A stretch of DNA of 54,479 nt from an uncultured Saprospiraceae bacterium (lineage in GTDB: Bacteria > Bacteroidota > Bacteroidia > Chitinophagales > Saprospiraceae). The first letter of the stretch is position 1; each line of letters begins with the position of its first letter. The notes below the pieces were generated by a model. That model was not told where the DNA came from. It did no database searches and worked only from the letters and a program-made list of their open reading frames with translations. Location: NCBI GenBank assembly GCA_964450465.1, contig CAYVDV010000001.1:1-54479 (forward strand), read 5' to 3'. Shown here in pieces: positions 33,775 through 53,947 of the stretch. Made by a program: the position numbers and the translations under genes.

Positions 33775-33788
33775 CAGATCTGTAATAC

Positions 33789-35413: not shown

Positions 35414-35443
35414 TCCAATCGTAAATCGTAAAGCATAAATCAT

Positions 35444-38370: not shown

Positions 38371-39834
38371 ATGCTTAGGAAACTTGCAGTTTTTTTTGCG
38401 CTGCTGGGGGTAGTCATATTGGCTACCTACTATGCGCCGGCAGCCGTAAAAACGCCATTCTATATTCTGCTCCTGGCCGCCTACCTGCGGTCGAAGAACG
38501 AGGGAATGTGGCTGGTGCTTTTCCTGACCATCTCCGATGGCTTCTGGGGGTATTTTAGTGCCTATGAGGTAGTATTGAAACTGATTCCCGGTCTTCCGCC
38601 AATCGAGGTGGGGCACTTGTATGTCGCGCTTACGCTGGTCAAAGCCTCCAACCGGGAGAGCCCGGGCGCATTCTTCCACGACAATTTCCTGAAAGTGATC
38701 ATGGTCTATATCGGCTTTCTGATCTTTCAGGGTTATTTCCTGGGCCTGAGCCCGCAAATGAACGTACAATTCAGGCTGATCAAATTCCTCTTCCCGCTTG
38801 CCCTGTTCGTTTCCGTACCCCGGTTATTCCGCACAGAGGAGGATTTTCGCGAAGTCTTTGTCTACTTATTCCCCATGGTCTTCCTGGCTCTGTTCGCCCA
38901 GGTTTTCACGATAACCACCGGACACACACCGTCCCAGTATTTGGGGGTGTACAAGAAGTTCTGGTTCACAGTGGATGTCGCCAAAGGCAAAACCTACCGC
39001 GGTTTTTACAGCAGCGGGACCGTGCTTATCTCCTATTTCGGCGCCTTCTATTACCTGGCGCGCAAGGAGAACTATTTCAACTATATGTACCTGTTTTCCA
39101 TCGTGGCGGCAGGATTGCTCTGTGTTATACTTTCCGCCACCCGCGGATGGCTGATCGGCTTCTCTCTAAGCCTGTTCCTGTTTCTCCTTTTCGTGCTCCG
39201 GCTCAATACCAAACGCCTGGCGACGGTACTGCTCACCGGCGGGCTGCTGGTGGTGGGACTGCTTATGATCCCGGTTGTAGCCAAACAGTTTGGAAATGCC
39301 TTTAAACGATTTACCACACTGGAGAAGCTGGCCGGTGGCGACGTCACCGCCGGCGGCACGCTGGAGCGGATCGACAAACGGAGCCCGAGGGTCATGGACA
39401 AGTGGAGCGAAGCCCCGCTCACCGGCTGGGGATTCTCCGATACTTTTTTCAAATATGCCGACTTCCACGTAGCCAATCAAAATGTATTGCTGCACTCCGG
39501 AATCCTTGGCCTGACCCTGATGGTCCTCTTTTTTATCTACTACCACGGCATGTTGCTGTCCAGATATCTTGAACTCCCACGGGGACGACCATTCAAAGAT
39601 CCAATGCTGGTTTTCGTGCTGTTTTTCCCGGGTTGGTATATGATCCACTCCTCTTCCGGGCAGCATTTCAGTTTCTACCAGGACCCCTGCGGCGGGATCA
39701 TAACCGCCTTCTACTTTTCCTTTGGCGCGTTCACCTTTAAAAAGTCTTTTATCCCTAAAACCCGTTCCGCCCCCCCGGCAATTCAGCCATCGCATGAACC
39801 GGAAACTTCGGCTCTTTCACAGCCGGATCCATAA
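38371..39834 (+). CDS. wzy: O-antigen polymerase/ligase family protein (Wzy_C-type)
   Basis: 487 aa with at least 10 TM spans. LSATRGWLIGFSLSLFLFLL followed by a large loop (FTTLEKLAGGDVTAGGTLERIDKRSPRV) is typical of Wzy/WaaL-like proteins. Confidence 0.7.
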   Translation: MLRKLAVFFALLGVVILATYYAPAAVKTPFYILLLAAYLRSKNEGMWLVLFLTISDGFWGYFSAYEVVLKLIPGLPPIEVGHLYVALTLVKASNRESPGAFFHDNFLKVIMVYIGFLIFQGYFLGLSPQMNVQFRLIKFLFPLALFVSVPRLFRTEEDFREVFVYLFPMVFLALFAQVFTITTGHTPSQYLGVYKKFWFTVDVAKGKTYRGFYSSGTVLISYFGAFYYLARKENYFNYMYLFSIVAAGLLCVILSATRGWLIGFSLSLFLFLLFVLRLNTKRLATVLLTGGLLVVGLLMIPVVAKQFGNAFKRFTTLEKLAGGDVTAGGTLERIDKRSPRVMDKWSEAPLTGWGFSDTFFKYADFHVANQNVLLHSGILGLTLMVLFFIYYHGMLLSRYLELPRGRPFKDPMLVFVLFFPGWYMIHSSSGQHFSFYQDPCGGIITAFYFSFGAFTFKKSFIPKTRSAPPAIQPSHEPETSALSQPDP

Positions 39835-39861
39835 CCGGGATTTGAAAACATCGATTTGAAA

Positions 39862-40977
39862 ATGAAAAAACAAATACTTCCTGCCCCCGTACATTATGTG
39901 GTATGGCGGTCCGATCCGGGCGGAGCGGAATCCTATATCAGCCATTACGTCCGGCATTTTGCCGGCCGGCGGGAGCGTCATATTTGCAGCCTGCGTTCGG
40001 CGGACAATGGGCTGAGCACGGACCCGGAAGTGTATTTCCACCCGGGCGGCGGAAACAGCCTGCAGTGCTATACCCGGTATTTCGGCTATTGCCGCCGGCA
40101 CCGGCAGGATTTGTTTCACCTGATGAGCGTGGGACCTGTGATCCTGTTGCTCACGCTCCTGGCGGGCGTCCGCAATCCGGTGTACCATATCCACGGTACG
40201 ATTTACTGGAAAAAGACGCTGGACCGGATCTACTTGAAAACAGCCTGGTGGCTGAGTTCCTTTTTTCGGGTGCGTTTTATCGCCAACTCCAAATACAGTG
40301 CGGCTATTTTTCATAAAAAAGTGCTGCCGGTCTGGCCAAAAGTGATCTATAACGGTTTCGAAATGGATCGCTTTTTGGAAAAACGAACCCTGCGCCCCGA
40401 CCTGCGCCGCATGGCCTATGCCGGCCGCCTGCATACGGGCAAGAATGTCGATCTGGTGATCCGGCTTTTTGAAGAGATCGCGGGAGAAATGCCGGAACTG
40501 GAACTGCATATTGCCGGCGACGGCATGCTGCGTCCGGCACTGGAAGAACAGGCCCGGCAAAGCCCCTTTGGAAAGCGGATCATTTTCCACGGCTGGGTAC
40601 AGGATGTACCTTCCTTTTACAGATCTGTTGACCTGTTTGTCTTCCTGAGCGCCTACGAATCCTTTGGAAACGTATTGCTGGAAGCCCTCCTGACCGGCCT
40701 GCCCATCCTGACCAGCGACGTGCCGGTCTTCGAGGAAATCCACGGCGGGGAGTCCGCTTTTTGCCTGGGCAACCCGGAATTCTATCCCGGCCTGGCTGCT
40801 GCGTTCCGGCAAGCCATTTCGCACTACCCCGCCCTTGCTGAAAAGGCTTTTGCCACAGGGGAGCGACTCCGTAAAACCTTTAGCCTGGAAAAACACCTGA
40901 CTGAAATTGAGCACATCTATGAAAAAACTGAGTCCACCGGTCATCTACTACCACTCCGTAGCGCCGAAGCTGTTTGA
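39862..40977 (+). CDS. Family 4 (GT-B) glycosyltransferase
   Basis: The track start at 39856 is TTG; an ATG lies at 39862. ExxxxxxxE motif in YESFGNVLLEALLTGLPILTSD. GRLHTGKNVDLVI. Confidence 0.85.
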   Translation: MKKQILPAPVHYVVWRSDPGGAESYISHYVRHFAGRRERHICSLRSADNGLSTDPEVYFHPGGGNSLQCYTRYFGYCRRHRQDLFHLMSVGPVILLLTLLAGVRNPVYHIHGTIYWKKTLDRIYLKTAWWLSSFFRVRFIANSKYSAAIFHKKVLPVWPKVIYNGFEMDRFLEKRTLRPDLRRMAYAGRLHTGKNVDLVIRLFEEIAGEMPELELHIAGDGMLRPALEEQARQSPFGKRIIFHGWVQDVPSFYRSVDLFVFLSAYESFGNVLLEALLTGLPILTSDVPVFEEIHGGESAFCLGNPEFYPGLAAAFRQAISHYPALAEKAFATGERLRKTFSLEKHLTEIEHIYEKTESTGHLLPLRSAEAV

Positions 40978-42076
40978 AGGTTGGGTGCTGAAGTTCCTGA
41001 CCCTCCAGCTGGAAACATTTGAGGATCAAATGGCCTATCTACAACAGAAAGGCTACCGGGCTGTCTTTTTTGACGAATGGCTGGCCATCCGCAGCGGCCG
41101 GCAGGCAAGCACCGGCCGGGAGGTAACGATCAGCTTCGACGACGGCCTGCTTGACAACTGGGTGTACGCTTTCCCTGTAGCCAAAAAATACGGCATGCGC
41201 TTTACCCTCTTCGTTTCGCCGGAATGCGTCGATCCCCGCGACATCGTCCGGCCTACGCTGGAGGATGTCTGGCAGGGCCGCTGCCGCAAAGCCGATCTCC
41301 AGGGGCTCGGCTATCTGTCCTGGCGGGAATTGAAACAAATGCAGGAATCCGGTTTCGTCGATATTCAATCGCACACCATGTCGCACACGAAATACATCAT
41401 TTCGGGCGACATCGACCGCTTTTACTACGGCGGCTTCCGGGGCATGTACCCCATCTGGAATGCCCGGCCGGAAACCAAACCGTTCTATGCAGAGGATCCG
41501 GATTTTGAGCAAAGGCTTCACCTGGGTGCACCGCTGTTCCGGGAAGCATCCGCCGTAGTGGCCCGAAAACACGACATCAATCCCGGATTTCTTGATGAAA
41601 TCGCCGCCCTTGCGGAGAAATACGACCTGAATATCCCCGAACACCGGCTCCCGTATGAGGCCAAAGCCCGGGAAATACACGCCAACTACCAATCCCAAAA
41701 CAAACTGATTACCGGGGTGGAAAGTGAAAGCGATTATCAGGCACGCCTGCGCTACGAAATTATCGACTCCAAAACAATTATTGAGGAAAAACTGGGCAAG
41801 CCTGTTCAGTTTCTGTGCTGGCCGCATGGCGACAACACCGCAGAAGCCCATGCACTGGCAAAAGCAAACGGTTATCTGGCCACCACCGCCGGAAAAATGA
41901 CCGGAGAGGCCAATCAAACAGATCGCATTCCCCGGATCGGCACCTCCTTCGAACTCAGCGCCTGGCTAAACCGGCAAAAATTTCACTATAAAATGGCCAG
42001 CCATTACCACCGGCAACCCTATTACGCCATTTGGCTGGCCAATGAATATAAAAACAAGATCCTGCAACGCAGCTGA
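40919..42076 (+). CDS. Polysaccharide deacetylase (CE4/NodB-homology) family protein
   Basis: ATG at 40919 (track TTG at 40907). ISFDDGLLDNW (motif 1), QSHTMSH (motif 2), FLCWPHGD. 59-nt overlap with the preceding GT4 gene. The stop overlaps the next ATG (TGATG). Confidence 0.75.
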   Translation: MKKLSPPVIYYHSVAPKLFEGWVLKFLTLQLETFEDQMAYLQQKGYRAVFFDEWLAIRSGRQASTGREVTISFDDGLLDNWVYAFPVAKKYGMRFTLFVSPECVDPRDIVRPTLEDVWQGRCRKADLQGLGYLSWRELKQMQESGFVDIQSHTMSHTKYIISGDIDRFYYGGFRGMYPIWNARPETKPFYAEDPDFEQRLHLGAPLFREASAVVARKHDINPGFLDEIAALAEKYDLNIPEHRLPYEAKAREIHANYQSQNKLITGVESESDYQARLRYEIIDSKTIIEEKLGKPVQFLCWPHGDNTAEAHALAKANGYLATTAGKMTGEANQTDRIPRIGTSFELSAWLNRQKFHYKMASHYHRQPYYAIWLANEYKNKILQRS

Positions 42077-43866
42077 TGTTCTTCTATCTGAAATATCGAT
42101 TGGCGCCCGACGCCGGCCCGCTTGCGGTGCAACTGCTCGATGCAGCAGACCAGCCTTGTGCTGCGGGAAACACCCTGTATGTCCATACCGGGCATCAGCG
42201 CATGGTTACGGCAGAGCTGCCCGGCGGGCGACTGCTCCTGTTGGGCGACCCCATCCATCCGGATTGGAAATCGCTGGGCGCCACAATTCCCGTTCGCGAC
42301 GGCGCCCCGGATGAAACTGCGCTGTATGAGCAGGTCCGGGGACACTACTACTGGTTTTTCCTGCATACCGGGGGCATTTGTTGCGGCAATTCTTTTGGGG
42401 CGATCTATCCCGTTTATTACCACATTGGAGCACAGTACTGCAGCGTTTCTTCCGCCTCATTTGCGCTCGCTGCAAAAACGGACGCAACGGAATCCGACCG
42501 GCGGAATCTGTTGGAGCGACTGCTGTTCAACTACCCGTTCTTTGACTCCACCTGGTGGAAAGGCATCCGGTTGCTGGATGCGCATGCCCGGCTGGAAATG
42601 TCCGGTGCTCAGGTACAGATCAAACAGCGCTTCCGGCTTGAGCAACACTTCGGCGACGGCGCCGACCACTCCCCGGGCAGCCTGCTGCGACTTGCCGAAT
42701 CCTTCCAGGCAGAAACCGGTCTTTTCCTGCCCGACCGGCCCTTTGGCATTTCGTTCACAGGCGGCTTCGACGGACGCACCCTGCTCGCCGCTGCCCGCAA
42801 GGCAGGTCGAAGCAACTTCCTGACTTATAGCTTCGGGCGCCCGGGCGCTTCCGACGTCAGCTTCCCGGAAGCCCAAACCCGCCGGCTGGGCATCCCGTAC
42901 ACTCCCATTCTGCTCGACGAAAAATACCTGGAACAGGATGCGCTGAGATCCGCCGGTGAATTCATGCGGCTTACAGAATTCAACGGGAATTACGGAAGGC
43001 CGCACTACCACTTTGCCGCGCAAAAACTTGCCGGCAGGACGGGCTACCTGCTGACCGGCAATTTCGGCAGCGAGTTGTTCCGGGCCCTGCACCAGCCGGG
43101 GGTCATGATGAGCGGACAGTTGATCCGGATCTTTTCAGCAGCGGATCAATCCTGGAAAGATCAGCTGGTCCGGGGAACGGTTTCCTGGAACAAAACGGCC
43201 TTTCGGGATGAACTTGACGCCCTGATCGCCGATCTGGAAAACTACCTGGCGCCTATGCAATCCTGGGAGCCCAACCATAAGTTCTACTATTTTGTGATTA
43301 ACGAGATCTTCCGCAAGTACTTCGGTCCGGAACTGGTAATGCAAAGCCATTTTCTGAATAACCGCACTCCGTTTCTTTCCCTCCGCTTTTTCCGCGAACT
43401 GAACGGCACCATCTGGTCGGGCGTGCATTCCCGCCTGTTTGAAAAAATGAAAAACAAGCGCCTCAAAGGCCAGCAGTTTTATTCCGCCTTTATCCGGCAG
43501 GCCGACCCGCAACTCTACCGCCTGAAGACCAACAAGGGTTACAGCCCCGTCGATGTTCTGGAACCGCTCCGGCGCCCCCTGCTGCTCGGACGGGTGGCCG
43601 TGCAAAAGTTCATCCGAAAAGATGAACCGGACTCCAACTCCGTAGATGCCTTTTTTCAACAAAACCGGGACTACCTGCACCGGCAAATCGACCCCGATGG
43701 CAATACAGACCTGCGGCATACTGGTCTGAATACCCTGTTGCAACAACCCGATGCCGGACTGGAAGAAACCATAAAATATTTTTCCATTGCCGCAGGTTGG
43801 GTCGCAGCGCAACAGATCGTTGCCCCTGCAGCAGGACTACTGACGAACATTGCAAACCTGAAATAA
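42076..43866 (+). CDS. Asparagine-synthase-family homolog lacking the N-terminal Cys nucleophile and with an altered PP-loop
   Basis: Begins MFFYLKY, with no Cys2. GHYYWFFLHTGGICCGNSFGAIYPVYYH resembles the AsnB Ntn-domain core (F.F...D......ARD..G..PLYY). ISFTGGFDGRTLL stands in place of the SGGLDSS PP-loop. Confidence 0.5.
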   Translation: MFFYLKYRLAPDAGPLAVQLLDAADQPCAAGNTLYVHTGHQRMVTAELPGGRLLLLGDPIHPDWKSLGATIPVRDGAPDETALYEQVRGHYYWFFLHTGGICCGNSFGAIYPVYYHIGAQYCSVSSASFALAAKTDATESDRRNLLERLLFNYPFFDSTWWKGIRLLDAHARLEMSGAQVQIKQRFRLEQHFGDGADHSPGSLLRLAESFQAETGLFLPDRPFGISFTGGFDGRTLLAAARKAGRSNFLTYSFGRPGASDVSFPEAQTRRLGIPYTPILLDEKYLEQDALRSAGEFMRLTEFNGNYGRPHYHFAAQKLAGRTGYLLTGNFGSELFRALHQPGVMMSGQLIRIFSAADQSWKDQLVRGTVSWNKTAFRDELDALIADLENYLAPMQSWEPNHKFYYFVINEIFRKYFGPELVMQSHFLNNRTPFLSLRFFRELNGTIWSGVHSRLFEKMKNKRLKGQQFYSAFIRQADPQLYRLKTNKGYSPVDVLEPLRRPLLLGRVAVQKFIRKDEPDSNSVDAFFQQNRDYLHRQIDPDGNTDLRHTGLNTLLQQPDAGLEETIKYFSIAAGWVAAQQIVAPAAGLLTNIANLK

Positions 43867-43912
43867 TATATAAAATTATATAGGCCAAGCATTAATACAA
43901 TAATATCCGACA

Positions 43913-45010
43913 ATGGAGACGATAATTAGCTATACACGACCCGATCGGGATTTTTGGTCGCAATACACCGAGCTGTGGCGAAACAGCCAGGGGCGCTCCC
44001 CCTTCCAGTCGCCCGGTATCCTGCAGTATTTCGCCGGGCGGGCGGAAGATCAGATTGCAACGGTAAGTTGCCGCAAAGAGGGGATGCTTCTGGGGGCTGC
44101 TTTGTTCCAAAAAGAGAGCGGCAGGTACACTTTCCTAAGCGATATGAAGACCGACGCCAATTTTTTTGTGTTGCATCACGATTGTACCCCAGCCCTGCAA
44201 CAACAATTTTTTGAACAGTTTCTGGAGGCGATCAAACGCGACAACTGGTCGCTGACGCTCAACAATCAACCCGGGTGGGCAGGCTACATGGCCCGCTTTG
44301 AAGCAGCCGGGCAGGCCAGCAAACTGTTTTGGATGAATATGAAGTATTCCGTTTGCCCCGTGGCGGAAGCGGAAACGCCCGATGCCCTCTTTCAGCGGAT
44401 CAATGGCTCGCGTGAGCTCCGTTACCGGGTAAACAAACTTAAAAACCAGGAAAATGCCGAATTCGAAGTCCTGACCGACGGAACGGATATCGACCATTGG
44501 GCAGATGAATTTTGCGATGCCCACATCCTGCGTTGGGCCGACACCCCCACTCCATCGTCGTATCGCGACCCTGCGCGCCGGCAATTTCTCAAAGATTGTC
44601 TGCATGCCTGGAACTCCGACGGCATTTTGGTACGATTTTCCGTAAGAGTAAAACAGAGCAGGGTTGGTTTCGTCGTGGGGCTTCTGGAGGAGAACTCGCT
44701 GATCCACCACTCCACGACCTTCCACCCCGACTATTGGAAGTTCAGCCCGGGCAAGGCGCTTATCCACTTCATGACCCAATGGATGAAGGGACAAAACATG
44801 CGGGCGCTGGATTTTGGCGACGGCGACGAACCGTACAAGTTCACCGTGGCCAATGTGGAACACGCCCTGCACCGGATCTTTATTTCCAGCCCCGGAAACC
44901 TTCCCTTTATTCTTAAAACCAGAGCGATCAAAGTCGTTCGCGACAATCCGAAATTCTATGATTTCTATCGGGAAAAAATAAAGCGGCTAAAACAGCGCAT
45001 ATCACTATGA
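43913..45010 (+). CDS. FemAB-related / CelD(BcsL)-type GNAT-fold acyltransferase (Acetyltransf_6-like)
   Basis: SPFQSPGILQYF near the N-terminus. C-terminal FHPDYWKFSPGKALIHFMTQWMKGQNMRALDFGDGDEPYKF is typical of the CelD/BioF2-like GNAT family as I recall it. Confidence 0.6.
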   Translation: METIISYTRPDRDFWSQYTELWRNSQGRSPFQSPGILQYFAGRAEDQIATVSCRKEGMLLGAALFQKESGRYTFLSDMKTDANFFVLHHDCTPALQQQFFEQFLEAIKRDNWSLTLNNQPGWAGYMARFEAAGQASKLFWMNMKYSVCPVAEAETPDALFQRINGSRELRYRVNKLKNQENAEFEVLTDGTDIDHWADEFCDAHILRWADTPTPSSYRDPARRQFLKDCLHAWNSDGILVRFSVRVKQSRVGFVVGLLEENSLIHHSTTFHPDYWKFSPGKALIHFMTQWMKGQNMRALDFGDGDEPYKFTVANVEHALHRIFISSPGNLPFILKTRAIKVVRDNPKFYDFYREKIKRLKQRISL

Positions 45011-46083
45011 GAAAACTAAAACTGGCTATTCTGAAGAATGAAGTAGCCGAAGATCACCTGCTTTGGCTGGAAGCCTGCCAAGAAATGAAGGATCGCATCG
45101 AATGGGACGTGGTCGATCTGACCCGACACGACTGGCTGGAACGAATCGAAGAAAAATCCTATGACGGGCTGCTGGCTTCCCCACCGGGATGGACCACCCC
45201 ATTCAAAACCATGTTTGACGAACGAATCAGCATTCTCGATACGGCGCTGCATATCCCGCTGTATCCTTCCGTAGAAGAGATCCTGATCTATGAAAACAAA
45301 AAATACCTTTCGTACTGGCTGACTGCCAACAACGTGCCGCATCCCCGGACCTGGGTATTTTACTACGAGGACGAGGCGCAGGCCTTTCTGGAAAAAGCGC
45401 AACTGCCGCTGGTCGGCAAATCCAGCATTGGCGGCTCGGGCAGCGGGGTGTTTATCCTGAAATCCCAAAAGGCTGCCCAGGAATACATCGATCATATCTT
45501 CTCCGGCAAGGGCGCCCCGCTCACGGTAGGTCCAAAATGGCGAAAAAAAGGCTTTATGGGCCGGGTACTGAAGCGGCTTATGCATCCGGCGGATTTCCGG
45601 ACCAAAATCAAGCAATACCGGCACCAGCGATCGGAAGTACAGAAGGATTTTGTCATTTTGCAGGAGTTCATACCGCATAGTTTTGAATGGCGCTGCGTGC
45701 GGATCGGCGACTCGTTTTTCGCCCATAAAAAACTGGTCAAAGGCGACAAGGCCAGCGGAAGCCTGTTGAAGGGTTACGAAAACCCGCCGTTCCGGCTGCT
45801 GGATTTCGTCAAGGACATAACGGATCGCAGGCACTTCCTCTCGCAGTCGGTGGATATTTTTGAAACCGCCGACGGCCGCTATCTGGTCAACGAAATGCAG
45901 TGCATTTTCGGCCAGTCCGATCCCTACCAAATGCTGGTGGACGGCCATCCGGGCCGCTACCGGCTGATTGATGGACAATGGACCTTTGAAGCCGGTGATT
46001 TTAACCGCTATGAATCATATCTGCTCCGGCTGGAGCATTTCCTGGAAATACTAACTGAAAAACAACTGGAGGTAACAGCGTGA
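45007..46083 (+). CDS. ATP-grasp (RimK-like) ligase
   Basis: LPLVGKSSIGGSGSGVFILKSQKAAQEY (P-loop-like Gly-rich lid). ILQEFIP. YLVNEMQCIFGQSD (Mg-binding E/N region). ATGA overlap upstream and GTGA overlap downstream. Confidence 0.7.
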   Translation: MRKLKLAILKNEVAEDHLLWLEACQEMKDRIEWDVVDLTRHDWLERIEEKSYDGLLASPPGWTTPFKTMFDERISILDTALHIPLYPSVEEILIYENKKYLSYWLTANNVPHPRTWVFYYEDEAQAFLEKAQLPLVGKSSIGGSGSGVFILKSQKAAQEYIDHIFSGKGAPLTVGPKWRKKGFMGRVLKRLMHPADFRTKIKQYRHQRSEVQKDFVILQEFIPHSFEWRCVRIGDSFFAHKKLVKGDKASGSLLKGYENPPFRLLDFVKDITDRRHFLSQSVDIFETADGRYLVNEMQCIFGQSDPYQMLVDGHPGRYRLIDGQWTFEAGDFNRYESYLLRLEHFLEILTEKQLEVTA

Positions 46084-47117
46084 AAGTTTTATTTGTATTC
46101 AGCGGCAATTCCCGGCAATTCCCGATCTCTCCGTTTACCAAGGCACAGGCCGATTCGCTGCGCGCATTAGGCGTGGAGGTTGATTACTTTCCCATTCAGG
46201 GAAAAGGCGCTATGAATTACCTGAAAAACGTAGGTCCGCTGCGCCAACACCTGAAGGCAAACCGCTACGACCTGATCCACGCCCATTACTCATTGTGCGG
46301 TTGGGTGGCGGTACTTGCTTCACTGGGGCGTTTACCCGTAGTATTGTCGCTTATGGGCGATGATGCGCAGGGTACCTTTACCGGAAATAACCGGATCGAC
46401 TTGAAAAGCCGCTACCTCATCTTTCTGACCCGGCTGATCCAGCCTTTTGTACAGGCCATCATTTCCAAATCTGCCAACCTGGAAAAAGCCGTGTATCGCA
46501 AGCGAATTTCTTATGTGATCCCCAATGGCGTGCGATTTGACCAGTTTCAACTTTACCCCAATGGCTGCCGGGAGGAGCTTGGCCTGAAAAAAGACCGGCA
46601 ATACGTGCTTTTCCTGGGAAATCCGCAAGACACGAACAAGAATTTTGCGCTGGTACAATCAGCCGTTGCCCTGCTGGGGCGTCCGGATGTGGAACTACTC
46701 AGCGTGTACCCCGTCACACACGATCAGGTAGTCAAGTACCTTAACTCGGTCGATGTATTTACCCTCTGTTCTTTTGGCGAAGGCTCCCCGAATGTCGTGA
46801 AGGAAGCCATGACCTGCAATTGCCCCCTGGTGGTCACCCCGGCCGGCGATGCCGCCTGGGTGGTCAGTGAAACGGAGGGTTGCCATGTAGCGGGTTATAC
46901 CCCGGAGGATTTTGCCGAAAAACTTGGTGCTGCACTCGAGTTTGCCCGGCAAAAAGGCCGGACCAGCGGACGGCAACGCATGCTTGATCTCGGCCTGGAT
47001 TCCCAGGCTGTGGCGATGAAGATCCTGAATATTTACAGCAAGTTGACGGACAAGGCTGCCCCCGGGCTGGCGCCGCCCGCGACCCGCCGGGAAGTAGCCG
47101 GCGCAGAAACCAACTGA
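46080..47117 (+). CDS. Family 4 (GT-B) glycosyltransferase
   Basis: GTG start overlapping the ATP-grasp stop. ExxxxxxxE in FGEGSPNVVKEAMTCNCPLVVT. Confidence 0.85.
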   Translation: MKVLFVFSGNSRQFPISPFTKAQADSLRALGVEVDYFPIQGKGAMNYLKNVGPLRQHLKANRYDLIHAHYSLCGWVAVLASLGRLPVVLSLMGDDAQGTFTGNNRIDLKSRYLIFLTRLIQPFVQAIISKSANLEKAVYRKRISYVIPNGVRFDQFQLYPNGCREELGLKKDRQYVLFLGNPQDTNKNFALVQSAVALLGRPDVELLSVYPVTHDQVVKYLNSVDVFTLCSFGEGSPNVVKEAMTCNCPLVVTPAGDAAWVVSETEGCHVAGYTPEDFAEKLGAALEFARQKGRTSGRQRMLDLGLDSQAVAMKILNIYSKLTDKAAPGLAPPATRREVAGAETN

Positions 47118-47201
47118 TTCTATTTGAAAACAAACGGACAGAAAAGGGGTATTGCTTCCCGCCTGCCGGAATAATAAACACCTTCGAACAACACTAAAAT
47201 T

Positions 47202-49052
47202 ATGTGCGGAATATCCGGAATAATCCATCTCGACGGCCAGCCAGTGCCCGAATCCCAGTTGTCTGCCATGATGCGGGCAATGAAGCATCGCGGCCCGAAC
47301 GACGACGGCATGTACGCCGAAGGCGGGGTGGGACTTGGATTTGTGCGCCTGAGTATTCTCGACCTGAGCCCGGCCGGACACCAGCCCATGTTCTCGGCCG
47401 ACGAGCGCTACGTACTGATTTTTAACGGGGAAGTTTTCAACTATATCGAACTCCGGGAAGAGCTGATGGCCAAGGGGCACCGGTTCCGCACTCAAACCGA
47501 TTCGGAAGTGCTGCTGGCGGCTTATGTGGAATGGGGCGAAGCCATGCTGCACCGCATGAACGGGATGTGGGCTTTTGTGATCTACGACCGCCGCGACAAG
47601 ACGATCTTCGGCGCGCGCGACCGCTACGGCGTCAAACCCTTCTTTTACTGTCTCGATGGGCAACGGTTCCTGTTTGGTTCCGACATCCGGTCGATTACTG
47701 CCGTACTGGGCCGCAAACCCACGCCGGATTCCGAAAGCCTGTTCAATTTCCTGGCTTTCAACCGCACCGATCAGAACGACGGCACCTTCCTGAAGGAAGT
47801 CAAAAAACTCGACCACGGGCATTGCTTCAAGATCCGGGTCGGCGGGGAATCCGGTGGAGCGCCTGTATTCCGTCCGCAAAAATGGTACGATATCCGGAAA
47901 GAGCTCAAGGAGCCGTTTAAAAGCCCGGAGGAATACCGGGAAATGTTCAACTCCTCCGTCGGCCTGCGTCTGCGCAGCGATGTGCCCGTTGGCGTTTGCC
48001 TGAGCGGCGGGCTGGATTCGTCGAGCATTGTATCCGTGCTGTTGCAAAATTTTCAGAAAAAAGACCTGAATACATTTTCCGCCGTGTATGGCAGCGGGCA
48101 AAAAGGCGATGAATCTTCTTTCATCGACTTGTACAAGGGCCAGTTGACCAATATGTATTTCACCCGGCCGGAAGCCGCCGACCTGCTTGCCGATCTTGAT
48201 GATCTGGCGCGGGCGCAATACGAGCCGGTCCCCAGCACCTCAACCTATGCGCAATACCGCGTCATGAAGCTGGCCAGGGAGCACGTGGTAGTGACACTGG
48301 ATGGCCAGGGCGCCGACGAAGCCTTGGCCGGATACCACTATTTCTTTGGGTTTCATTTCAAAAACCTGCTGCGCAGGGGCCGGCTCGGCGCACTGACCTC
48401 CGAGATGGGCCATTACTACGACAAACACCGCTCCTTGTACGGGATCAAAAGTCTCGTGTTCTTCCTGTTGCCGGCTTTTCTACGCACCCAGGTCCGGGTG
48501 ATGGAAAAAGGCTACCTGGACCCCGACTTTTTCCAGGCCAATGCGCAGGGCACCAATATTATCACCGGCGAGCTGTACGGCTCCAATTCCTTGCAGGAGG
48601 CCCTGATCAACCACTTCGAATACAAACTGGAACACCTGCTGAAGTGGGAAGACCGCAACTCTATGTGGTTCTCCCTCGAAGCGCGCGTCCCCTTCCTCGA
48701 TTACCGGCTGGTGGAACGCACCCTGACCATACCCGATGACATGATCATCCGAAAAGGCATGACCAAGCATATCCTGCGCGAAGCCATGAAGGGCACCCTG
48801 CCGGAAGCCATCCGGATGCGCCGCGACAAGGTGGGTTTTGAAACCCCCGAGGCGGAATGGTTCCGTACCCCGGCTTTCCAGACGTACATACGGGATATGA
48901 TCAACTCCGCGCCTTTCACCACCCGCGGCATCATGGATCTGAAAAAAGTACAGTCTATTTATGAAAAACACCTCAACCGGGAAGGTAACTACTCCAGGGA
49001 AATCTGGAAATGGATACACCTGGAAAAATGGTACAATCAATTTATCGATTAA
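47202..49052 (+). CDS. asnB: Asparagine synthase (glutamine-hydrolysing) family amidotransferase
   Basis: MCGISGIIHLDG with the Cys2 nucleophile. RGPDD-like RGPNDDG. ARDRYGVKPFFY. PP-loop VGVCLSGGLDSSSIV. 616 aa. Confidence 0.9.
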   Translation: MCGISGIIHLDGQPVPESQLSAMMRAMKHRGPNDDGMYAEGGVGLGFVRLSILDLSPAGHQPMFSADERYVLIFNGEVFNYIELREELMAKGHRFRTQTDSEVLLAAYVEWGEAMLHRMNGMWAFVIYDRRDKTIFGARDRYGVKPFFYCLDGQRFLFGSDIRSITAVLGRKPTPDSESLFNFLAFNRTDQNDGTFLKEVKKLDHGHCFKIRVGGESGGAPVFRPQKWYDIRKELKEPFKSPEEYREMFNSSVGLRLRSDVPVGVCLSGGLDSSSIVSVLLQNFQKKDLNTFSAVYGSGQKGDESSFIDLYKGQLTNMYFTRPEAADLLADLDDLARAQYEPVPSTSTYAQYRVMKLAREHVVVTLDGQGADEALAGYHYFFGFHFKNLLRRGRLGALTSEMGHYYDKHRSLYGIKSLVFFLLPAFLRTQVRVMEKGYLDPDFFQANAQGTNIITGELYGSNSLQEALINHFEYKLEHLLKWEDRNSMWFSLEARVPFLDYRLVERTLTIPDDMIIRKGMTKHILREAMKGTLPEAIRMRRDKVGFETPEAEWFRTPAFQTYIRDMINSAPFTTRGIMDLKKVQSIYEKHLNREGNYSREIWKWIHLEKWYNQFID

Positions 49053-49054
49053 TC

Positions 49055-50062
49055 ATGCGAAAACTTCGAAATCTCTTCTTCCTCCTGATGCGGTATTCCG
49101 GCATGCCTTTTCTTATCCGGGAATTGTTCCAGCGCCGCAGAGTAACGATCGTCATGCTGCATGACCCGGCTCCGGATGTTGCGGAAAAAACCTTTGCATA
49201 TCTGGCCAGCCGTTACCATATCATCGATCTGAATACGTTTCTGGAGGCGCGTCGCAGGGGCGACAGCCGCGCGCTGCCGCCAAAAGCCATGATCATCACG
49301 ATGGACGACGGGCATATTCGCAATTACCAGCTCCTTCCAATCATCAAAAAGCTAAACATCCCCATTACCATTTTCCTGTGCGCAGGCATCATCAATACCA
49401 ACCGCCACTACTGGTTCAAGTTCAAGCACCCCGACCTGTTCAAGCCGGCACTGAAACAAATGCCGACCCGGGAGAAACTGGAATGGCTTGCAGAAGCCGG
49501 ATTTTGGCCGGAAAAAGAGTTTCCCAACCCTCTGGCCCTGACGAAGGATCAGATCCGGGAAATGAAACCGCATGTCAATTTCCAGGGGCACACCTCCTTC
49601 CATCCCTGTCTCCCGAGATGCACCAGACAGGCAGCCTGGGAAGAAATCGCCGGATCAAAACAGATCCTGGAGCAGGATTTCGGCCTGCCGGTCAATGCCA
49701 TCGCTTTCCCGAACGGCGACTATTCGGAGCGGGACATAGAACTCGTCAAGGCTGCCGGTTACTCCTGCGCTATCACGGTCGATTTCGGCTTCAATACCAT
49801 CCATACCGACCCTTTCCGGCTCAAACGCCTCAGTATTGACGATGCCGACAACGTGGATACGGTTTGTGTCAAGGCCAGCGGTATCTGGACCCTGTTGTTG
49901 CATTGGCTTGGGAAACGCCGTTTCTCTGGGAAAATGGCCCCTCTTCCGCAGAAGGCCGTCGCGGGCGCCAAAGCGCTGAAACAAACCGTACCGGTGATCG
50001 CCCTGTCGTTTCTGAGCAAAGCAGACCTTATCACAGAAGCAATTTGCAGTACGCTGAACTAA
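49055..50062 (+). CDS. Polysaccharide deacetylase (CE4/NodB-homology) family protein
   Basis: An ATG at 49055, 2 nt after the asnB stop, gives MRKLRNLFFLLMRYSG (track start 49010 overlaps asnB). ITMDDGHIRNY (motif 1), QGHTSFH (motif 2), IAFPNGDYS. Confidence 0.75.
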   Translation: MRKLRNLFFLLMRYSGMPFLIRELFQRRRVTIVMLHDPAPDVAEKTFAYLASRYHIIDLNTFLEARRRGDSRALPPKAMIITMDDGHIRNYQLLPIIKKLNIPITIFLCAGIINTNRHYWFKFKHPDLFKPALKQMPTREKLEWLAEAGFWPEKEFPNPLALTKDQIREMKPHVNFQGHTSFHPCLPRCTRQAAWEEIAGSKQILEQDFGLPVNAIAFPNGDYSERDIELVKAAGYSCAITVDFGFNTIHTDPFRLKRLSIDDADNVDTVCVKASGIWTLLLHWLGKRRFSGKMAPLPQKAVAGAKALKQTVPVIALSFLSKADLITEAICSTLN

Positions 50063-50080
50063 TCATAAAACAACGAAATA

Positions 50081-51112
50081 ATGCAAATAGAACTTTATAC
50101 GAAGGCAGAACAGCTGGACCAAAGCCCCTATGAGGCGGCATTTGGGCAATTCCTGGCCCAGGCGCCCACTGCGAACTATTTCCAAAGCCCCGATTTTTTG
50201 CGGTTTATTCAGACCGTCGGCGGCTACAAACCTTTTCTATTCCTGGCCGTAACCGATTCCGGCGCCATAGCAGGCTCGCTGTTAGGCGTCATTCAATCGG
50301 ACGGCAAAGGCTTGAAATCCTGGTTCTCCCGGCGGCTCATCGTATGGGGTGGGCCCATTTTACCCGATAATTCGAACCGGGAGGGGCAAGAAGTGGCAAG
50401 AAAGTTGCTAAGTGCTCTGAAGAAGCACGCGCAGGGAAAGGCAATTTTTATCGAATTCCGGAATTTCTTCGATTGCTCGGACCTGCAGCCGGTATTTGAA
50501 GCCAGCGGTTTCCATTTCCGCCCGCACCTGAATTTTCTGGTCAATACGGATGATGAAGCCGCCGCGCGCGCGCGCTTGAGCAGCAACCGCAGACGGCAGA
50601 TCAAGACTACGCTGGCCGCCGGCGCCACGGTATCCGAAGCGGAATCAGAGGCAGATGTGATAGAGCTGTACGAACTGCTCGACAAACTGTATAAAGAAAA
50701 AGTCAAAAAGCCCTTGCCTGGCCCTGATCTGTTTGTCAATCTCTGGAAATCGCCGCAAGGCAAGGTTTTCGTGGTCAAACTGGACGGCAAGGTAATCGGG
50801 GGCAGTGTAGGGCCGGTGTACGGCAATAAAGTGATCTACCAATGGTATGTATGCGGTGAAAACGGGGTAGTCAGCGGCGTACACCCCAGCGTGCTGGCCT
50901 CCTGGGCGCCCATCGAATATGCCGCCCGCAACGGGTTTGCCCGCTTCGATTTTATGGGAGCCGGGCGCCCCGACGATGAATACGGCGTCCGCGAATTCAA
51001 GGCCCGTTTTGGCGGAGAGCAGGTTGCATACGGCCGCTTTGAAAAGGTACTCAGCCGTTCCCTGTACCGGGTCGGAAAATTGGGATTAAAAGTTTATCAA
51101 ACCATACGATAA
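50081..51112 (+). CDS. FemAB-family / Acetyltransf_6-type GNAT-fold acyl(aminoacyl)transferase
   Basis: NYFQSPDFLRFIQ, SSNRRRQIKT and FARFDFMGAGRPDDEYGVREFKARFGG resemble lipid II:glycine glycyltransferase / FemAB-like proteins as I recall them. Confidence 0.6.
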   Translation: MQIELYTKAEQLDQSPYEAAFGQFLAQAPTANYFQSPDFLRFIQTVGGYKPFLFLAVTDSGAIAGSLLGVIQSDGKGLKSWFSRRLIVWGGPILPDNSNREGQEVARKLLSALKKHAQGKAIFIEFRNFFDCSDLQPVFEASGFHFRPHLNFLVNTDDEAAARARLSSNRRRQIKTTLAAGATVSEAESEADVIELYELLDKLYKEKVKKPLPGPDLFVNLWKSPQGKVFVVKLDGKVIGGSVGPVYGNKVIYQWYVCGENGVVSGVHPSVLASWAPIEYAARNGFARFDFMGAGRPDDEYGVREFKARFGGEQVAYGRFEKVLSRSLYRVGKLGLKVYQTIR

Positions 51113-52170
51113 TGAGAATAATCTTTGACATTGGACATCCTGCACACGTGCATTTGTTCAAACATTTGGCCCGCTTGCTGATGCAGAATGGCTCCGAAGT
51201 GCTGTTTACTGCGCGCGACAAGGAATTTGAACTGGACCTGCTGGAAGCAGAAGGTTTCCCTTATGTTTGTTTTGGCAAGCATTACCGCAGCCTCCCGGGC
51301 AAATTATGGGGTCTGATCCAGTACGACGTACAAATGTTCCTGACCGGCCTGCGCTTTAAGCCGGATTTGTTTATCAGCCACGGTACGCCCTATGCCGCAC
51401 ACGCCGCATTCCTGCTTGGGGCCAAAAACCTCGCTATTGAAGATACCGGCAATATGGAACAGGTAATCCTGTACCGGCCGTTTACCGATGCGATCCTTAC
51501 GCCCGATGTTTTACCGAAAGACCTGGGACCCAAGCAGATCCGCTACAACGGCTACCATGAAATCGCCTACCTGCATCCGGAATTTTTCACCCCCGACCCC
51601 TCTATTCAAAAATGGCTGGGCGTGGAAGAGGGCGAGGATTATGCGATTATCCGTTTTATTTCCTGGAATGCCACACACGACGTCGGGCACAAGGGCATGT
51701 CTGCGGAGGACAAAGTCAGGCTGGTAAAAAAACTGTCGGAGCGCATGAAAGTATTCATTACCTCGGAACGAGGAGTTTCCGAAGAATTGAAACCCTTCGT
51801 CCTGCGCATGCCGCCGGATAAATTCCACCATGTACTGAACTACGCGACTATCGTCATCAGCGAAGGAACGACCACAGCTGTGGAAGCCGGTATTCTGGGC
51901 ACACCTTGTGTGTACATCAGTACGTTCGTCGATCCCAACTGCCAGGAGATGGAACAATTCGGCCTGGTATTCAACACCTCCGAATCCGGCAAAGTCTTTG
52001 ATATGGTAGATCGCGTGTTAGACGAGAACCGGGAAGTTTACCGGGAACGGAGCAAAACCTTCCTGGACACGAAAGTAAATGCTACCCGGTATTACTATGA
52101 TTTTATCGTTGACCGGTATCAAAAAAACAGTGCACCAATAAAAAATCCATCATGGAAATCAACTTACTGA
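51112..52170 (+). CDS. DUF354 domain protein (predicted GT-B fold, function unknown)
   Basis: MRIIFDIGHPAHVHLFKHLARLLMQNGSEVLFTARDKE matches the characteristic DUF354 N-terminus (D..HP.HVH.FK). TAATG overlap with the upstream stop. Confidence 0.75.
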   Translation: MRIIFDIGHPAHVHLFKHLARLLMQNGSEVLFTARDKEFELDLLEAEGFPYVCFGKHYRSLPGKLWGLIQYDVQMFLTGLRFKPDLFISHGTPYAAHAAFLLGAKNLAIEDTGNMEQVILYRPFTDAILTPDVLPKDLGPKQIRYNGYHEIAYLHPEFFTPDPSIQKWLGVEEGEDYAIIRFISWNATHDVGHKGMSAEDKVRLVKKLSERMKVFITSERGVSEELKPFVLRMPPDKFHHVLNYATIVISEGTTTAVEAGILGTPCVYISTFVDPNCQEMEQFGLVFNTSESGKVFDMVDRVLDENREVYRERSKTFLDTKVNATRYYYDFIVDRYQKNSAPIKNPSWKSTY

Positions 52171-53123
52171 TCACCGGAGGCGCCGGCTTTATCGGCTCCA
52201 ATCTGGTGGAAAAATACCTCAACGACGAGCGCGTCGGGTTGGTCCGCGTAGTGGACGATCTCTCCAATGGGTATTATGAAAATATCGCCGAGTTTGAATC
52301 GCATCCGAAGTTTGAGTTTATCAAAGGCGATATCTGCGACTATTCCGTATGCACCCGGGCAATGCGCGGGATAAACAAGGTAACCCATCAGGCCGCGCTG
52401 GGCTCGGTGCCCCGTTCCATTGAAAACCCGGCACGCACCAACGAGGTGAATGTGGGCGGCACCGTCAACATCCTGCACGCCGCCAAGGAAGCCGGTGTGG
52501 AGCGTATCGTGCTCGCTTTCTCTTCCAGTACCTATGGCGACAGCGCCGAACTGCCTAAAGTGGAAGAACGCATCGGCAGGCCTTTATCGCCTTATGCGGT
52601 GAGCAAATACGCCGCCGAGCTCTATGCCGAAGTCTTTGCCCGCACCTACGGCCTTCCTTTTGTCGGCCTTCGGTATTTCAATATTTTCGGCCCCCGCCAG
52701 AACGCCGACAACCCCTATGCCGCCGTGATCCCTATTTTCTGTAAAGCCTTTATCGAGGACAAACAACCGCGGATCCATGGTGACGGTACCACCAGCCGGG
52801 ATTTTACCTATGTGGCCAATGCCCTGCACGCCAACGACCTCGCCCTGTTTACCGACAACCGGGAGGCCCTGAACCAGGTGTATAACGTAGCCTGCGGCGA
52901 ACAGGTTGACCTGAATGAAATGGTCGATATGCTCCGGCAAATCACCGGCAAGGATATTCAACCCCTGTATGGTCCAGAACGCCCGGGCGACGTCAAACAC
53001 TCCAAGGCGGATATTTCAAAAATACGCCGGCACTTGGGCTATACGCCGCAAGTGCGTATGCTGGAAGGCCTGAAGCGGGTTTATCAGTACAATCTGGATA
53101 AATACATGGCCAACGTCCTGTAA
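52152..53123 (+). CDS. NAD-dependent UDP-GlcNAc/UDP-GlcNAcA C4-epimerase (WbpP/TviC-like extended SDR)
   Basis: LITGGAGFIGSNL, HQAALGSVPRSIENP, SSSTYGD, YAVSKYAAELY (YxxxK), RYFNIFGPRQ. 19-nt overlap with the DUF354 gene. Confidence 0.85.
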   Translation: MEINLLITGGAGFIGSNLVEKYLNDERVGLVRVVDDLSNGYYENIAEFESHPKFEFIKGDICDYSVCTRAMRGINKVTHQAALGSVPRSIENPARTNEVNVGGTVNILHAAKEAGVERIVLAFSSSTYGDSAELPKVEERIGRPLSPYAVSKYAAELYAEVFARTYGLPFVGLRYFNIFGPRQNADNPYAAVIPIFCKAFIEDKQPRIHGDGTTSRDFTYVANALHANDLALFTDNREALNQVYNVACGEQVDLNEMVDMLRQITGKDIQPLYGPERPGDVKHSKADISKIRRHLGYTPQVRMLEGLKRVYQYNLDKYMANVL

Positions 53124-53164
53124 ACACACATGCCTTTTTAATCTACGCTTAAAACCACGTACTT

Positions 53165-53947
53165 ATGCGCGATTTTACGCTCTCCATTTACCGGGAACTG
53201 CTCGATGAACTTAAACGGGCGGGTTACCGCTTTCAAACGTTCAATGACTTCCTCTCTCAGCCACAGGAGCGGGTGATCCTGCTCCGCCACGACGTGGACG
53301 ACCGCAAACTGCACAGCCTGGAATTTGCCCGGATACAAAATGAAAAAGGCATTGTAGGCAGCTACTACTTCCGCATGGTCCCGCAAAGCTTTGATGAAAC
53401 AGTCATCCGGGAAGTCTATGACCTGGGACATGAGGTCGGCTACCACTATGAAGACATGGATTTCGCAAAGGGGGACCCCCATAAGGCCATCCAGTTGTTT
53501 GAGCAACACCTGGCCAAACTACGCGCTGTAGTACCGGTTTCGACGATCTGCATGCACGGAAGCCCGCGCTCGCCTTTCGACAATAAAGATGTATGGAAAC
53601 ACTATCAATACCGCAATTATGGTATTACAGGAGAACCATACTTTGATATCGATTTTAACCAGGTATTCTATCTTACAGACACCGGCCGGCGCTGGGATGG
53701 CGGTTCCGTAAGTGTGCGCGATAAAGTCAACACCCGCTTCCGGTTGCATTTCCGGACTACTCAGGATATCATCGGAGCCATCCGGAGTGGGGAATTTCCC
53801 AATCAGGTTATGATCAACTTTCATCCGCAACGCTGGACGGATAATCCGCGACTGTGGTGGACGGACAAATACCAACAGCAGGTTAAAAACGCCGCAAAGT
53901 ACTGGTTAATTAAAATGCGATCCGGAAAATCGGCCGTTGATAATTGA
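53165..53947 (+). CDS. Divergent CE4-like (polysaccharide deacetylase-type) protein / hypothetical
   Basis: ILLRHDVDD (Asp-Asp motif 1-like) and LGHEVGYHYE (His-containing motif 2-like) suggest a NodB-type metal site. The assignment is weak. Confidence 0.45.
   Translation: MRDFTLSIYRELLDELKRAGYRFQTFNDFLSQPQERVILLRHDVDDRKLHSLEFARIQNEKGIVGSYYFRMVPQSFDETVIREVYDLGHEVGYHYEDMDFAKGDPHKAIQLFEQHLAKLRAVVPVSTICMHGSPRSPFDNKDVWKHYQYRNYGITGEPYFDIDFNQVFYLTDTGRRWDGGSVSVRDKVNTRFRLHFRTTQDIIGAIRSGEFPNQVMINFHPQRWTDNPRLWWTDKYQQQVKNAAKYWLIKMRSGKSAVDN

Follow-up and report, generated by a model that had tools for sequence, protein, structure and literature searches.

A conserved polysaccharide-locus cassette of uncultured Bacteroidota, an expanded relative of the Wbp/Vim-type pathway

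In Porphyromonas gingivalis, type IX secretion system (T9SS) cargo was deduced to be amide-bonded to 2-N-seryl-3-N-acetylglucuronamide, and the linking sugar of Tannerella forsythia is a 2-N-glycyl mannuronic acid analogue (Veith et al. 2020, PMC7468200). Wbp enzymes were deduced to make a di-N-acetyl uronic acid, VimE, a protein of carbohydrate esterase family 4 (CE4), to take off its 2-N-acetyl group, and VimA, which matches TIGR03019, to add the amino acid, the last as shown by a vimA swap between the two species. The AsnB-family protein WbpS makes the uronamide, as shown by its deletion (PMC7468200). The triad of CE4, VimA-type and AsnB proteins also lies beside exosortases, and such loci were proposed to make an amino-acid-modified sugar (PMC7468200). 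A 2025 study of Prevotella intermedia stated that Bacteroidota must have further, as yet unknown routes to sugars of this kind (PMC11969387). We analyzed a stretch of 54,479 nucleotides (nt) from an uncultured Saprospiraceae bacterium (contig CAYVDV010000001.1; hereafter the window), in which a block of eleven genes at 40919-53947 encodes proteins of these families. The block belongs to a real, strongly conserved cassette that is an expanded relative of the Wbp/Vim-type pathway and not unexplained chemistry. The first-pass annotation of this DNA had held that the chemistry of the triad was not worked out, a statement outdated by the assignment of VimE, VimA and WbpS. The logic it proposed, de-N-acetylation, aminoacyl re-acylation and amidation of uronic carboxylates, is plausible, being the logic demonstrated or deduced for Wbp/Vim. 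New here are the family of ASN1 (an AsnB-fold protein without the nucleophilic Cys), an obligatory ATP-grasp partner, zero to four diverged paralogues of the Fem-type transferase FEM1 per locus, and a large unannotated family, X.

A gene-neighborhood survey was anchored on ASN1. One genome per GTDB species was scanned (185,579 species genomes), which gave 134 carriers, and the flanks of the best 80 of the 134 were annotated with the window's proteins; counts are over evaluable loci. The cassette is syntenic in these 80 species genomes, in the order GT1_2, Wzy, GT4, PDA1, ASN1, FEM1, ATP-grasp and GT4b, with or without ASN2, PDA2, FEM2, DUF354 and X (Table 1). This order is kept while ASN1 identity drops to 32%, which is far beyond chance and speaks for a single functional unit. 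In three contigs, independent gene calls annotated with Pfam gave the same order. The best 80 carriers are all metagenome-assembled genomes (MAGs), from the Saprospiraceae/Lewinellaceae, the Flavobacteriales, the Bacteroidales/Rikenellaceae/Lentimicrobiaceae, the Sphingobacteriales and one Caldithrix.

Two consecutive duplicated sets had been read into the block. The units that recur are instead a near-invariant part from GT1_2 to GT4b and a facultative part from ASN2 to DUF354, and some loci stop directly after GT4b. The conserved unit starts at 37265 at the latest, so that a boundary at 40919 splits it. Nor did the pairs behave as duplicates in BLASTP: PDA1 and PDA2 share 29% identity over 99 amino acids (aa) (E=1e-5), ASN1 and ASN2 match at E=0.1, and FEM1 and FEM2 gave no match. 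The 129 Fem-like open reading frames (ORFs) of the related loci likewise fall into FEM1 and FEM2 as two separate families. A recent tandem duplication of a three-gene set is ruled out by these comparisons, which point to a recurrence of superfamilies, not of copies.

Bacteroidales-type loci lack FEM1 and PDA2 while carrying PDA1, ASN1, ATP-grasp, GT4b, FEM2, DUF354 and X. Some of these cassettes also code for a 380-aa protein (L070:16822-17964; homologues in L073, L075 and L080) with an N-terminal CxxC...CxxC and an SGGKDS PP-loop but no Pfam match. Presumably it resembles the WbpG/PseA-type N-acetyl-sugar amidotransferases.

All eleven ORFs of the block were found at the starts first reported (40919 to 53165), on the + strand, with intergenic gaps of -59 to +84 nt; PDA1 overlaps the start of ASN1 by 1 nt. 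They form part of an operon-like array of 24 co-directional genes at 26441-53947 (+) with no gap above 84 nt. The array begins with WbpD, WbpB, Wzc, Wzx, GT2 and a CDP-sugar sub-cluster, continues with GT1_2, Wzy and GT4 into the block, and runs beyond the window end into a phosphoglycosyl-transferase gene. On the best explanation, the region holds the core genes for tailoring and assembly in a surface polysaccharide locus of the Wzx/Wzy-dependent type, which extends from 26441 to past the window end. As no signal peptide or transmembrane (TM) segment was detected in any of the tailoring proteins, these are expected to act in the cytoplasm.

Both Wbp genes named in the first-pass annotation were borne out by strong PDB matches (Table 1), and their presence in the same operon adds weight to Wbp/Vim-type chemistry. 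The CDP-sugar sub-cluster, complete here but found in only a subset of related loci, passes its cutoffs for TIGR02623 (407 bits, cutoff 300), TIGR02622 (472, cutoff 278), TIGR01221 (203, cutoff 156) and TIGR03570 (189, cutoff 161) and matches PF01041 with 327 bits. The predicted product, an N-acetylated amino-dideoxyhexose linked to CDP, belongs to a sugar type for which activation by CDP is unusual.

Table 1. Genes of the array (all on the + strand), best matches, and occurrence in related loci (evaluable Saprospiraceae-type loci unless stated otherwise)
Feature	Coordinates	Evidence	Occurrence
WbpD/WlbB-type UDP-2-acetamido-3-amino-uronic acid N-acetyltransferase	26441..27043	PDB 3mqg (WlbB) E=3.2e-72, 246 bits, near full length; Hexapep repeats	
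WbpB-type UDP-GlcNAcA 3-dehydrogenase	27088..28056	PDB 3oa2 (WbpB) E=1.9e-116, 392 bits, residues 1-311; GFO_IDH_MocA domains	
Wzc-type chain-length/tyrosine-kinase co-polymerase	28130..30520	Wzz, GNVR, AAA_31 domains; 2 TM-like segments	
Wzx flippase	30528..31988	PF13440 309 bits; 10 TM-like segments	
GT2 glycosyltransferase, variable locus part	32003..32998	PF00535 83 bits	
CDP-sugar sub-cluster: glucose-1-P cytidylyltransferase (RfbF), CDP-glucose 4,6-dehydratase (RfbG), RmlC-like epimerase, DegT aminotransferase, NeuD/PglB/VioB-type N-acetyltransferase	32995..37244	TIGR/PF matches (see text)	
GT1_2 (CgeB-like) glycosyltransferase, first gene of conserved cassette	37265..38308	PF13524 57 bits	49/51
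Wzy-type polymerase (Wzy_C/O-antigen-ligase family membrane protein)	38371..39834	PF04932 33 bits; multi-TM	51/51
GT4 glycosyltransferase	39856..40977	PF13692 91 bits	48/51
PDA1, CE4 de-N-acetylase, PgaB/BpsB-like	40919..42076	PF01522 63 bits; PDB BpsB 5bu6 E=6e-9; FDDG + HTMSH motifs	51/51
ASN1, glutaminase-dead two-domain AsnB-fold protein	42076..43866	AlphaFold2 (AF2) model + Foldseek; PF00733 20.7 bits	58/58 Saprospiraceae-type loci (scan anchor)
FEM1, CelD/Fem-type double-GNAT-like transferase	43913..45010	PF13480 82 bits	46/50
ATP-grasp ligase, RimK/LysX/PurD-like nucleotide-binding region, divergent C-terminal half	45007..46083	PF08443 22.7 bits; GARS_A 18.7 bits	50/50
GT4b glycosyltransferase	46080..47117	GT4 domains	50/50; further count 15/17 loci
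ASN2, canonical glutamine-dependent AsnB-family amidotransferase	47202..49052	PF00733 241 bits; PF13537 148 bits; glutamine amidotransferase (GATase) domains; TIGR01536 440 bits (cutoff 267)	30/44
PDA2, second CE4 de-N-acetylase	49055..50062	PF01522 56 bits; MDDG + HTSFH motifs; PDB 6dq3 E=7e-9	34/44
FEM2, FemABX/pepcterm_femAB-like transferase	50081..51112	PF13480 50 bits; PF02388 29.9 bits (threshold 24)	32/44
DUF354 protein	51112..52170	PF04007 47.4 bits (gathering score 22)	30/44; further count 10/12 loci
WbpP/TviC-type UDP-HexNAc(A) 4-epimerase	52152..53123	NF011728 TviC 302 bits (best match), below cutoff 760	
X53165 (X), large, highly conserved, unannotated family	53165..53947	AF2 pLDDT 86; Foldseek	11/12 Bacteroidales-type loci

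Hidden Markov model (HMM) searches of Pfam and NCBIfam upheld the earlier family calls for ten of the eleven proteins; the eleventh, X53165, is CE4-like weakly, by predicted fold. PDA1 and PDA2 both exceed the PF01522 threshold of 23.1 bits and keep the Asp-Asp and His-x3-His metal/base motifs. ASN2 is the canonical AsnB protein it was first taken for, with an MCGI start carrying Cys2, an SGGLDSS PP-loop, a GATase domain and a TIGR01536 score above cutoff. Its score against the WbpS-type model TIGR03108 (404 bits, cutoff 817) is higher than that against housekeeping AsnB (PRK09431, 250 bits), and its role may be like that of WbpS, forming a uronamide. In FEM2 the PF02388 match covers the C-terminal part only. 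FEM2 also has a match, below cutoff, to TIGR03019, which VimA is reported to match as well (residues 20-314, E=2e-7, 30 bits where the cutoff is 260). For FEM2, as for PDA1 and PDA2 with their PF01522 matches, the likeness to the Vim enzymes is at the family level. Among PDB sequences FEM2 aligns with the aminoacyl-tRNA-dependent peptide synthase 9wqy (E=6e-4) and with FemA (E=0.05). A literature search returned no biochemical proof of aminoacyl-tRNA use by VimA.

The DUF354 protein is a probable fourth glycosyltransferase; for it, a literature search gave only unrelated DUF35xx papers. The epimerase position that follows is variable. Two loci instead encode a membrane-bound O-acyltransferase (MBOAT) of the AlgI/DltB type (L001:20972-21773 and L002:19846-21255), which suggests an alternative O-acylation or D-alanylation-like decoration.

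ASN1 had been called a degenerate AsnB, which its search results fit: it falls slightly short of the PF00733 gathering score of 21, and a GATase domain was not detected. It has neither the N-terminal Cys nucleophile nor the canonical PP-loop of a glutamine-hydrolysing AsnB. The protein starts with MFFYL, without Cys2, and distant family members start with MSGLFGI or MAGIFGI, which reads as the MCGI of AsnB with the nucleophile replaced. In place of SGGxDS the PP-loop is TGGFDGRT, invariant in 18 sequences, and about 90 residues are invariant across proteins of 43-61% identity. When its profile was aligned with ASN2 by hhalign, the probability was 27%, although the PP-loops aligned. As this alignment was weak, a fold search was needed to place ASN1. 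The AF2 model (predicted local distance difference test, pLDDT, 86; predicted template modelling score, pTM, 0.89) has the complete two-domain AsnB fold, and Foldseek matched it to TsnB9 (1.8e-13) and to carbapenam synthetase, beta-lactam synthetase and AsnB (about 1e-12). The best PDB sequence match of the profile was CarA, around the PP-loop. On this model and by analogy with beta-lactam synthetase and CarA, ASN1 is best read as a putative glutaminase-dead, ATP-dependent carboxylate-adenylating amide ligase.

ASN1 homologues are a distinct family, with 359 representative clusters matching at E<=1e-30 in a set of 1.84 billion representatives. A word-indexed search gave 230 matches, with every named source a Saprospiraceae or Lewinellaceae MAG, and an exact-match look-up found no exact copy of the window's protein on record.

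FEM1 is present in 0-4 tandem copies per locus, one or two in most, with 30-55% mutual identity (median 43%). This copy number and the old divergence between copies resemble FemX/A/B and would fit a diversifying specificity. A class-I S-adenosylmethionine (SAM) methyltransferase gene lies between tandem FEM1 paralogues in 13 Saprospiraceae-type loci (e.g. L041:13162-13947), including L018, L027, L033, L034, L036, L038, L041, L043, L044, L046, L047 and L054; it is not found in the window. For the ATP-grasp ligase that follows FEM1, membership in the RimK family was rejected on TIGR00768 (46 bits against a cutoff of 143); only its nucleotide-binding part matches (PF08443, 22.7 bits). Judged by its domain matches, it is a member of the ATP-grasp superfamily outside the RimK family.

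The protein encoded at 53165 had been listed as a third CE4 deacetylase. This call was not confirmed: Pfam, NCBIfam and PDB-sequence searches gave no match, and hhalign against PDA1 and PDA2 gave a probability below 1%. With these HMM, PDB-sequence and profile-profile tests negative, a bona fide CE4 enzyme is not supported, and a weak fold match remains. The top Foldseek matches of the AF2 model are all CE4 structures (E=2e-3, TM-score 0.4-0.54), and in the HMM search one of 25 homologues reaches E=0.067. Its invariant positions, H42, D43, D45 and H89-x4-H94, differ from the canonical CE4 DD and HxxxH. We tentatively regard X53165 as CE4-like on the strength of the predicted fold. The family is very large, with 7938 of 8000 scored candidates at E<=1e-3 and the top 120 at least 65% identical (65-82% for the top matches).

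Exact matches to X53165 came from four short contigs, whose identity to the window's end is 99.1-99.4%. Among them, the metagenomic contig L086 (99.4%) reaches about 1 kb past the window and shows the next gene starting about 59 nt beyond, at about 54538. Its product is a phosphoglycosyl-transferase of the Bac_transf type and shares 65% identity with a PF02397 protein. X53165 homologues usually precede an initiating phosphoglycosyl-transferase, and in several contigs that gene follows by about 590 nt. In the window, the roughly 530 nt after X53165 (53948-54479) hold no + strand ORF and are AT-rich in their first part. Like the spacer of about 590 nt in related contigs, this one may hold an internal promoter or regulatory element.

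How might these enzymes act together? The data show gene content, family and fold membership, active-site motifs, synteny and modular structure, whereas we infer the substrates, the order of the steps and the assignment of enzymes to bonds. We expect cytoplasmic tailoring of nucleotide-sugars, or else of the undecaprenyl-pyrophosphate-linked repeat unit before flipping by Wzx. WbpB and WbpD, with WbpA and WbpE encoded elsewhere, would supply a 2,3-diacetamido uronic acid, and the CDP sub-cluster would supply an N-acetylated amino-dideoxyhexose. PDA1, PDA2 and possibly X would take off specific N-acetyl groups and expose amines, which FEM1 and FEM2 would re-acylate with amino acids, as VimA does after VimE in P. 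gingivalis. The ATP-grasp ligase and the Cys-less ASN1 could form further ATP-dependent amide bonds, either extending a peptide or linking a carboxylate to an amino acid or to the amine of a sugar. ASN2 would turn a carboxylate, most likely that of the uronic acid, into an amide, as does WbpS. GT1_2, GT4, GT4b and DUF354 would assemble the repeat unit and Wzy would polymerise it. We give the general scheme, in which the cassette strips N-acetyl groups from amino sugars and re-attaches amino acids and amide groups, a probability of roughly 0.6, and hold each individual enzyme assignment with much less confidence.

Several observations weigh against this scheme. No ORF of the window matches a dehydrogenase family as WbpA (UDP-GlcNAc 6-dehydrogenase) would, and the window has no clear WbpE (3-aminotransferase): its sole DegT gene, at 35444, lies in the CDP-sugar sub-cluster and best matches PseC/ArnB/LegC-type models. 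The uronic acid substrate therefore hinges on genes elsewhere, and WbpA and WbpE may be encoded elsewhere in the genome, as in P. gingivalis. The likeness to VimA, VimE, VimF and WbpS is at the family level only. The PP-loop of ASN1 and its TGNFGSE motif depart from the catalytic residues of AsnB, and the protein may have another activity or serve a non-catalytic purpose. The PF08443 (RimK) match of the ATP-grasp protein is marginal. FEM1 matched PF13480 alone in the Pfam, NCBIfam and PDB searches, with no PDB or NCBIfam match. We know of no established activity for the founding members of PF13480 (CelD/BcsL). The carriers are all MAGs, without any polysaccharide structure for a carrier organism.

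Some of these points also speak for an ordinary heteropolysaccharide locus without amino acids. In such a locus the PF13480 proteins would be acyl-CoA N-acyltransferases adding non-acetyl acyl groups after the CE4 enzymes, ASN2 would still make a uronamide, and ASN1 would be a non-catalytic or regulatory relic. FEM1 matches a GNAT-type family only, VimA itself was originally annotated as an acetyl-CoA transferase, ASN1 lacks the Cys, the canonical SGGxDS and the E/D residues, and the ATP-grasp match is again the marginal one. However, FEM2 passes PF02388 and has an aminoacyl-tRNA-dependent peptide synthase and FemA among its PDB alignments. The many invariant residues of ASN1 across proteins of 43-61% identity, and its presence in every locus, are not the pattern of a relic, and ATP-grasp is present in every evaluable Saprospiraceae-type locus. 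Three separate types of carboxylate- or amine-activating enzyme are also hard to square with acyl-CoA chemistry alone, and we consider this explanation unlikely.

A further possibility, compatible with the tailoring chemistry proposed above, concerns what the product is for. The cassette could make a glycan that anchors T9SS cargo, its aminoacyl linking sugar offering a free alpha-amine to the PorU sortase, as A-LPS does in P. gingivalis. The enzyme logic is that of Wbp/Vim, the maker of the P. gingivalis and T. forsythia linking sugars. The P. intermedia linker differs, being an N-alanyl-deoxyhexose of unknown biosynthesis, and several pathways are expected across Bacteroidota; it is also partly methylated (PMC11969387). 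An amino-dideoxyhexose pathway is present in the loci studied here, 13 of which also have the methyltransferase between FEM1 copies. Nine Bacteroidales-type cassettes (L064, L066, L070, L072, L073, L074, L075, L078 and L081) enclose a conserved secreted protein of about 400 aa with a type-A T9SS C-terminal domain (PF18962, 26-52 bits), encoded between DUF354 and the X53165 homologue (e.g. L070:15610-16815). In the window, a 1096-aa T9SS cargo protein (GBD_T9SS_assoc, SprB repeat, Por_Secre_tail) is encoded at 22794-26084 (+), ending 357 nt 5' of the first operon gene.

The adjacency in the window is weak evidence, as T9SS cargo genes are numerous in these genomes, and the Saprospiraceae-type loci gave no in-cassette cargo gene. 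ASN1 was matched in only 134 of the 185,579 species genomes, far fewer than bear a T9SS. The locus also has Wzc (and Wza in L002), which is capsule- or exopolysaccharide (EPS)-type export and not the WaaL-dependent lipopolysaccharide (LPS) route. We therefore think a role in cargo anchoring rather improbable. Equally speculative is its fuller form, a third, independent route to a T9SS linking glycan in environmental Bacteroidota, in which a polymer or oligosaccharide would bear N-aminoacyl or peptidyl amino sugars, their free amine would be the acceptor of a PorU-type sortase, ASN1 and ATP-grasp a new sugar-peptide ligase pair, and the embedded Bacteroidales T9SS protein a dedicated client. 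A CHU_C/SprB-repeat protein is encoded in L046 at a position similar to that of the window's cargo gene.

An XrtA-associated PEP-CTERM/exosortase EPS module moved into Bacteroidota would also place FemAB-like, deacetylase and amidotransferase superfamilies side by side, and GT4 at 39856 (TIGR03088 PEP-CTERM glycosyltransferase), FEM2 (TIGR03019) and ASN2 (TIGR03108) do match models of that system below cutoff. We find it very hard to credit, as those scores are far under the curated cutoffs (83 against 409, 30 against 260 and 404 against 817), at E<=0.01 PDA1 and PDA2 have NCBIfam matches of the PgaB/IcaB/PdaB type alone, none of them PEP-CTERM-associated, all the best 80 carriers are MAGs of the Fibrobacteres-Chlorobi-Bacteroidetes (FCB) group, and the window's ORFs include no exosortase, as the first-pass annotation had also stated. 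Membership in the PEP-CTERM-associated TIGRFAMs, which that annotation had proposed to check by HMM search, is ruled out by the curated cutoffs, no family threshold being reached.

Other genes of the window lie upstream of the array. A SusC/SusD-like pair at 8518-13209 (-), followed by DUF4886 and Big_5/LTD/Calx-beta surface proteins (4419-8521), and a separate OMP_b-brl_3 TonB-dependent receptor at 16726-19335 (-) look like a polysaccharide-utilisation-type locus unrelated to the cassette. A pair of neighboring DUF1501 and DUF1800 genes at 19439-22619 (-) is also apparently unrelated to it. A 398-aa ORF at 14957-16153 (+) has no Pfam match. For sheath polymers of Haliscomenobacter and other sheathed bacteria, a literature search gave nothing usable on sheath chemistry or genes.

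Amino-acid-modified sugars are the handle by which secreted proteins are fastened to the surface in P. gingivalis, T. forsythia and P. intermedia. The cassette is a conserved, self-contained candidate for an elaborated form of this chemistry, carried by abundant but uncultured wastewater and aquatic Saprospiraceae and by Bacteroidales. It brings into view the glutaminase-dead AsnB-fold family, which has about 360 clusters and in every case is flanked by a CE4 deacetylase and an ATP-grasp/Fem-like pair, and the very large X53165 family. If the proposed tailoring scheme is true, it would broaden the Wbp/Vim paradigm, in which one seryl or glycyl group is added, to a peptide-like decoration of Wzy-dependent glycans in several steps, and would also inform the chemistry of PEP-CTERM EPS.

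Several known systems share parts of this design. In lipid II tailoring by FemXAB, MurT-GatD and AsnB1/LtsA, Fem paralogues add amino acids successively from aminoacyl-tRNA, and amidotransferases amidate carboxylates before flipping. The likeness lies in the cytoplasmic chemistry on lipid-linked intermediates. The acceptor there is the stem peptide of peptidoglycan, whereas the cassette's proposed acceptor is a sugar amine of a Wzy-dependent repeat unit. The PEP-CTERM/XrtA triad of TIGR03019, TIGR03108 and a deacetylase likewise has three adjacent superfamilies in an EPS locus, but it is found in another phylum, and the cassette differs from it in having no exosortase in the window and in its extra ASN1, ATP-grasp, DUF354 and X. 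Among solved structures, PDA1 and PDA2 are closest to the poly-N-acetylglucosamine (PNAG) de-N-acetylases PgaB, IcaB and BpsB (E about 1e-8 to 1e-9), with which they have the CE4 metal/base motifs in common. The PNAG enzymes work outside the cytoplasm, on polymer that is already complete, whereas PDA1 and PDA2 lack an export signal and show translational coupling to ATP- or tRNA-dependent enzymes.

The Cys-less AsnB-fold amide-bond formers, beta-lactam synthetase, CarA, TsnB9 and the lasso-peptide cyclases, share the two-domain fold with ASN1 (Foldseek E about 1e-13 to 1e-12), and beta-lactam synthetase and CarA, like ASN1, lack the N-terminal Cys nucleophile. The shared fold and the missing Cys suggest adenylation of a carboxylate followed by attack of a nitrogen not derived from glutamine. 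ASN1 differs from these enzymes in sequence (about 12% identity), in its PP-loop (TGGFDGRT against SGGLDS) and in its context, which is polysaccharide assembly and not the biosynthesis of antibiotics or of ribosomally synthesized and post-translationally modified peptides (RiPPs).

The nearest parallel is Wbp/Vim as known from P. gingivalis and T. forsythia (WbpA/B/E/D, VimE, VimA, WbpS and VimF). Both have a T9SS-bearing Bacteroidota background, WbpB and WbpD and, at the family level, a deacetylase of CE4, a transferase like Fem/TIGR03019, an amidotransferase of the AsnB family and glycosyltransferases of GT4, and the predicted product is of the same kind, an N-aminoacyl, N-acetyl hexuronamide-type sugar. 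Deacetylase-like proteins number two or three in the cassette, and its Fem-like proteins fall into two families, one with 0-4 copies; it also adds the obligatory ATP-grasp ligase, the glutaminase-dead AsnB-fold protein and DUF354. While the P. gingivalis genes are scattered and their product is a single linking sugar on LPS, the cassette is one syntenic unit with its own Wzy in a Wzc-type locus.

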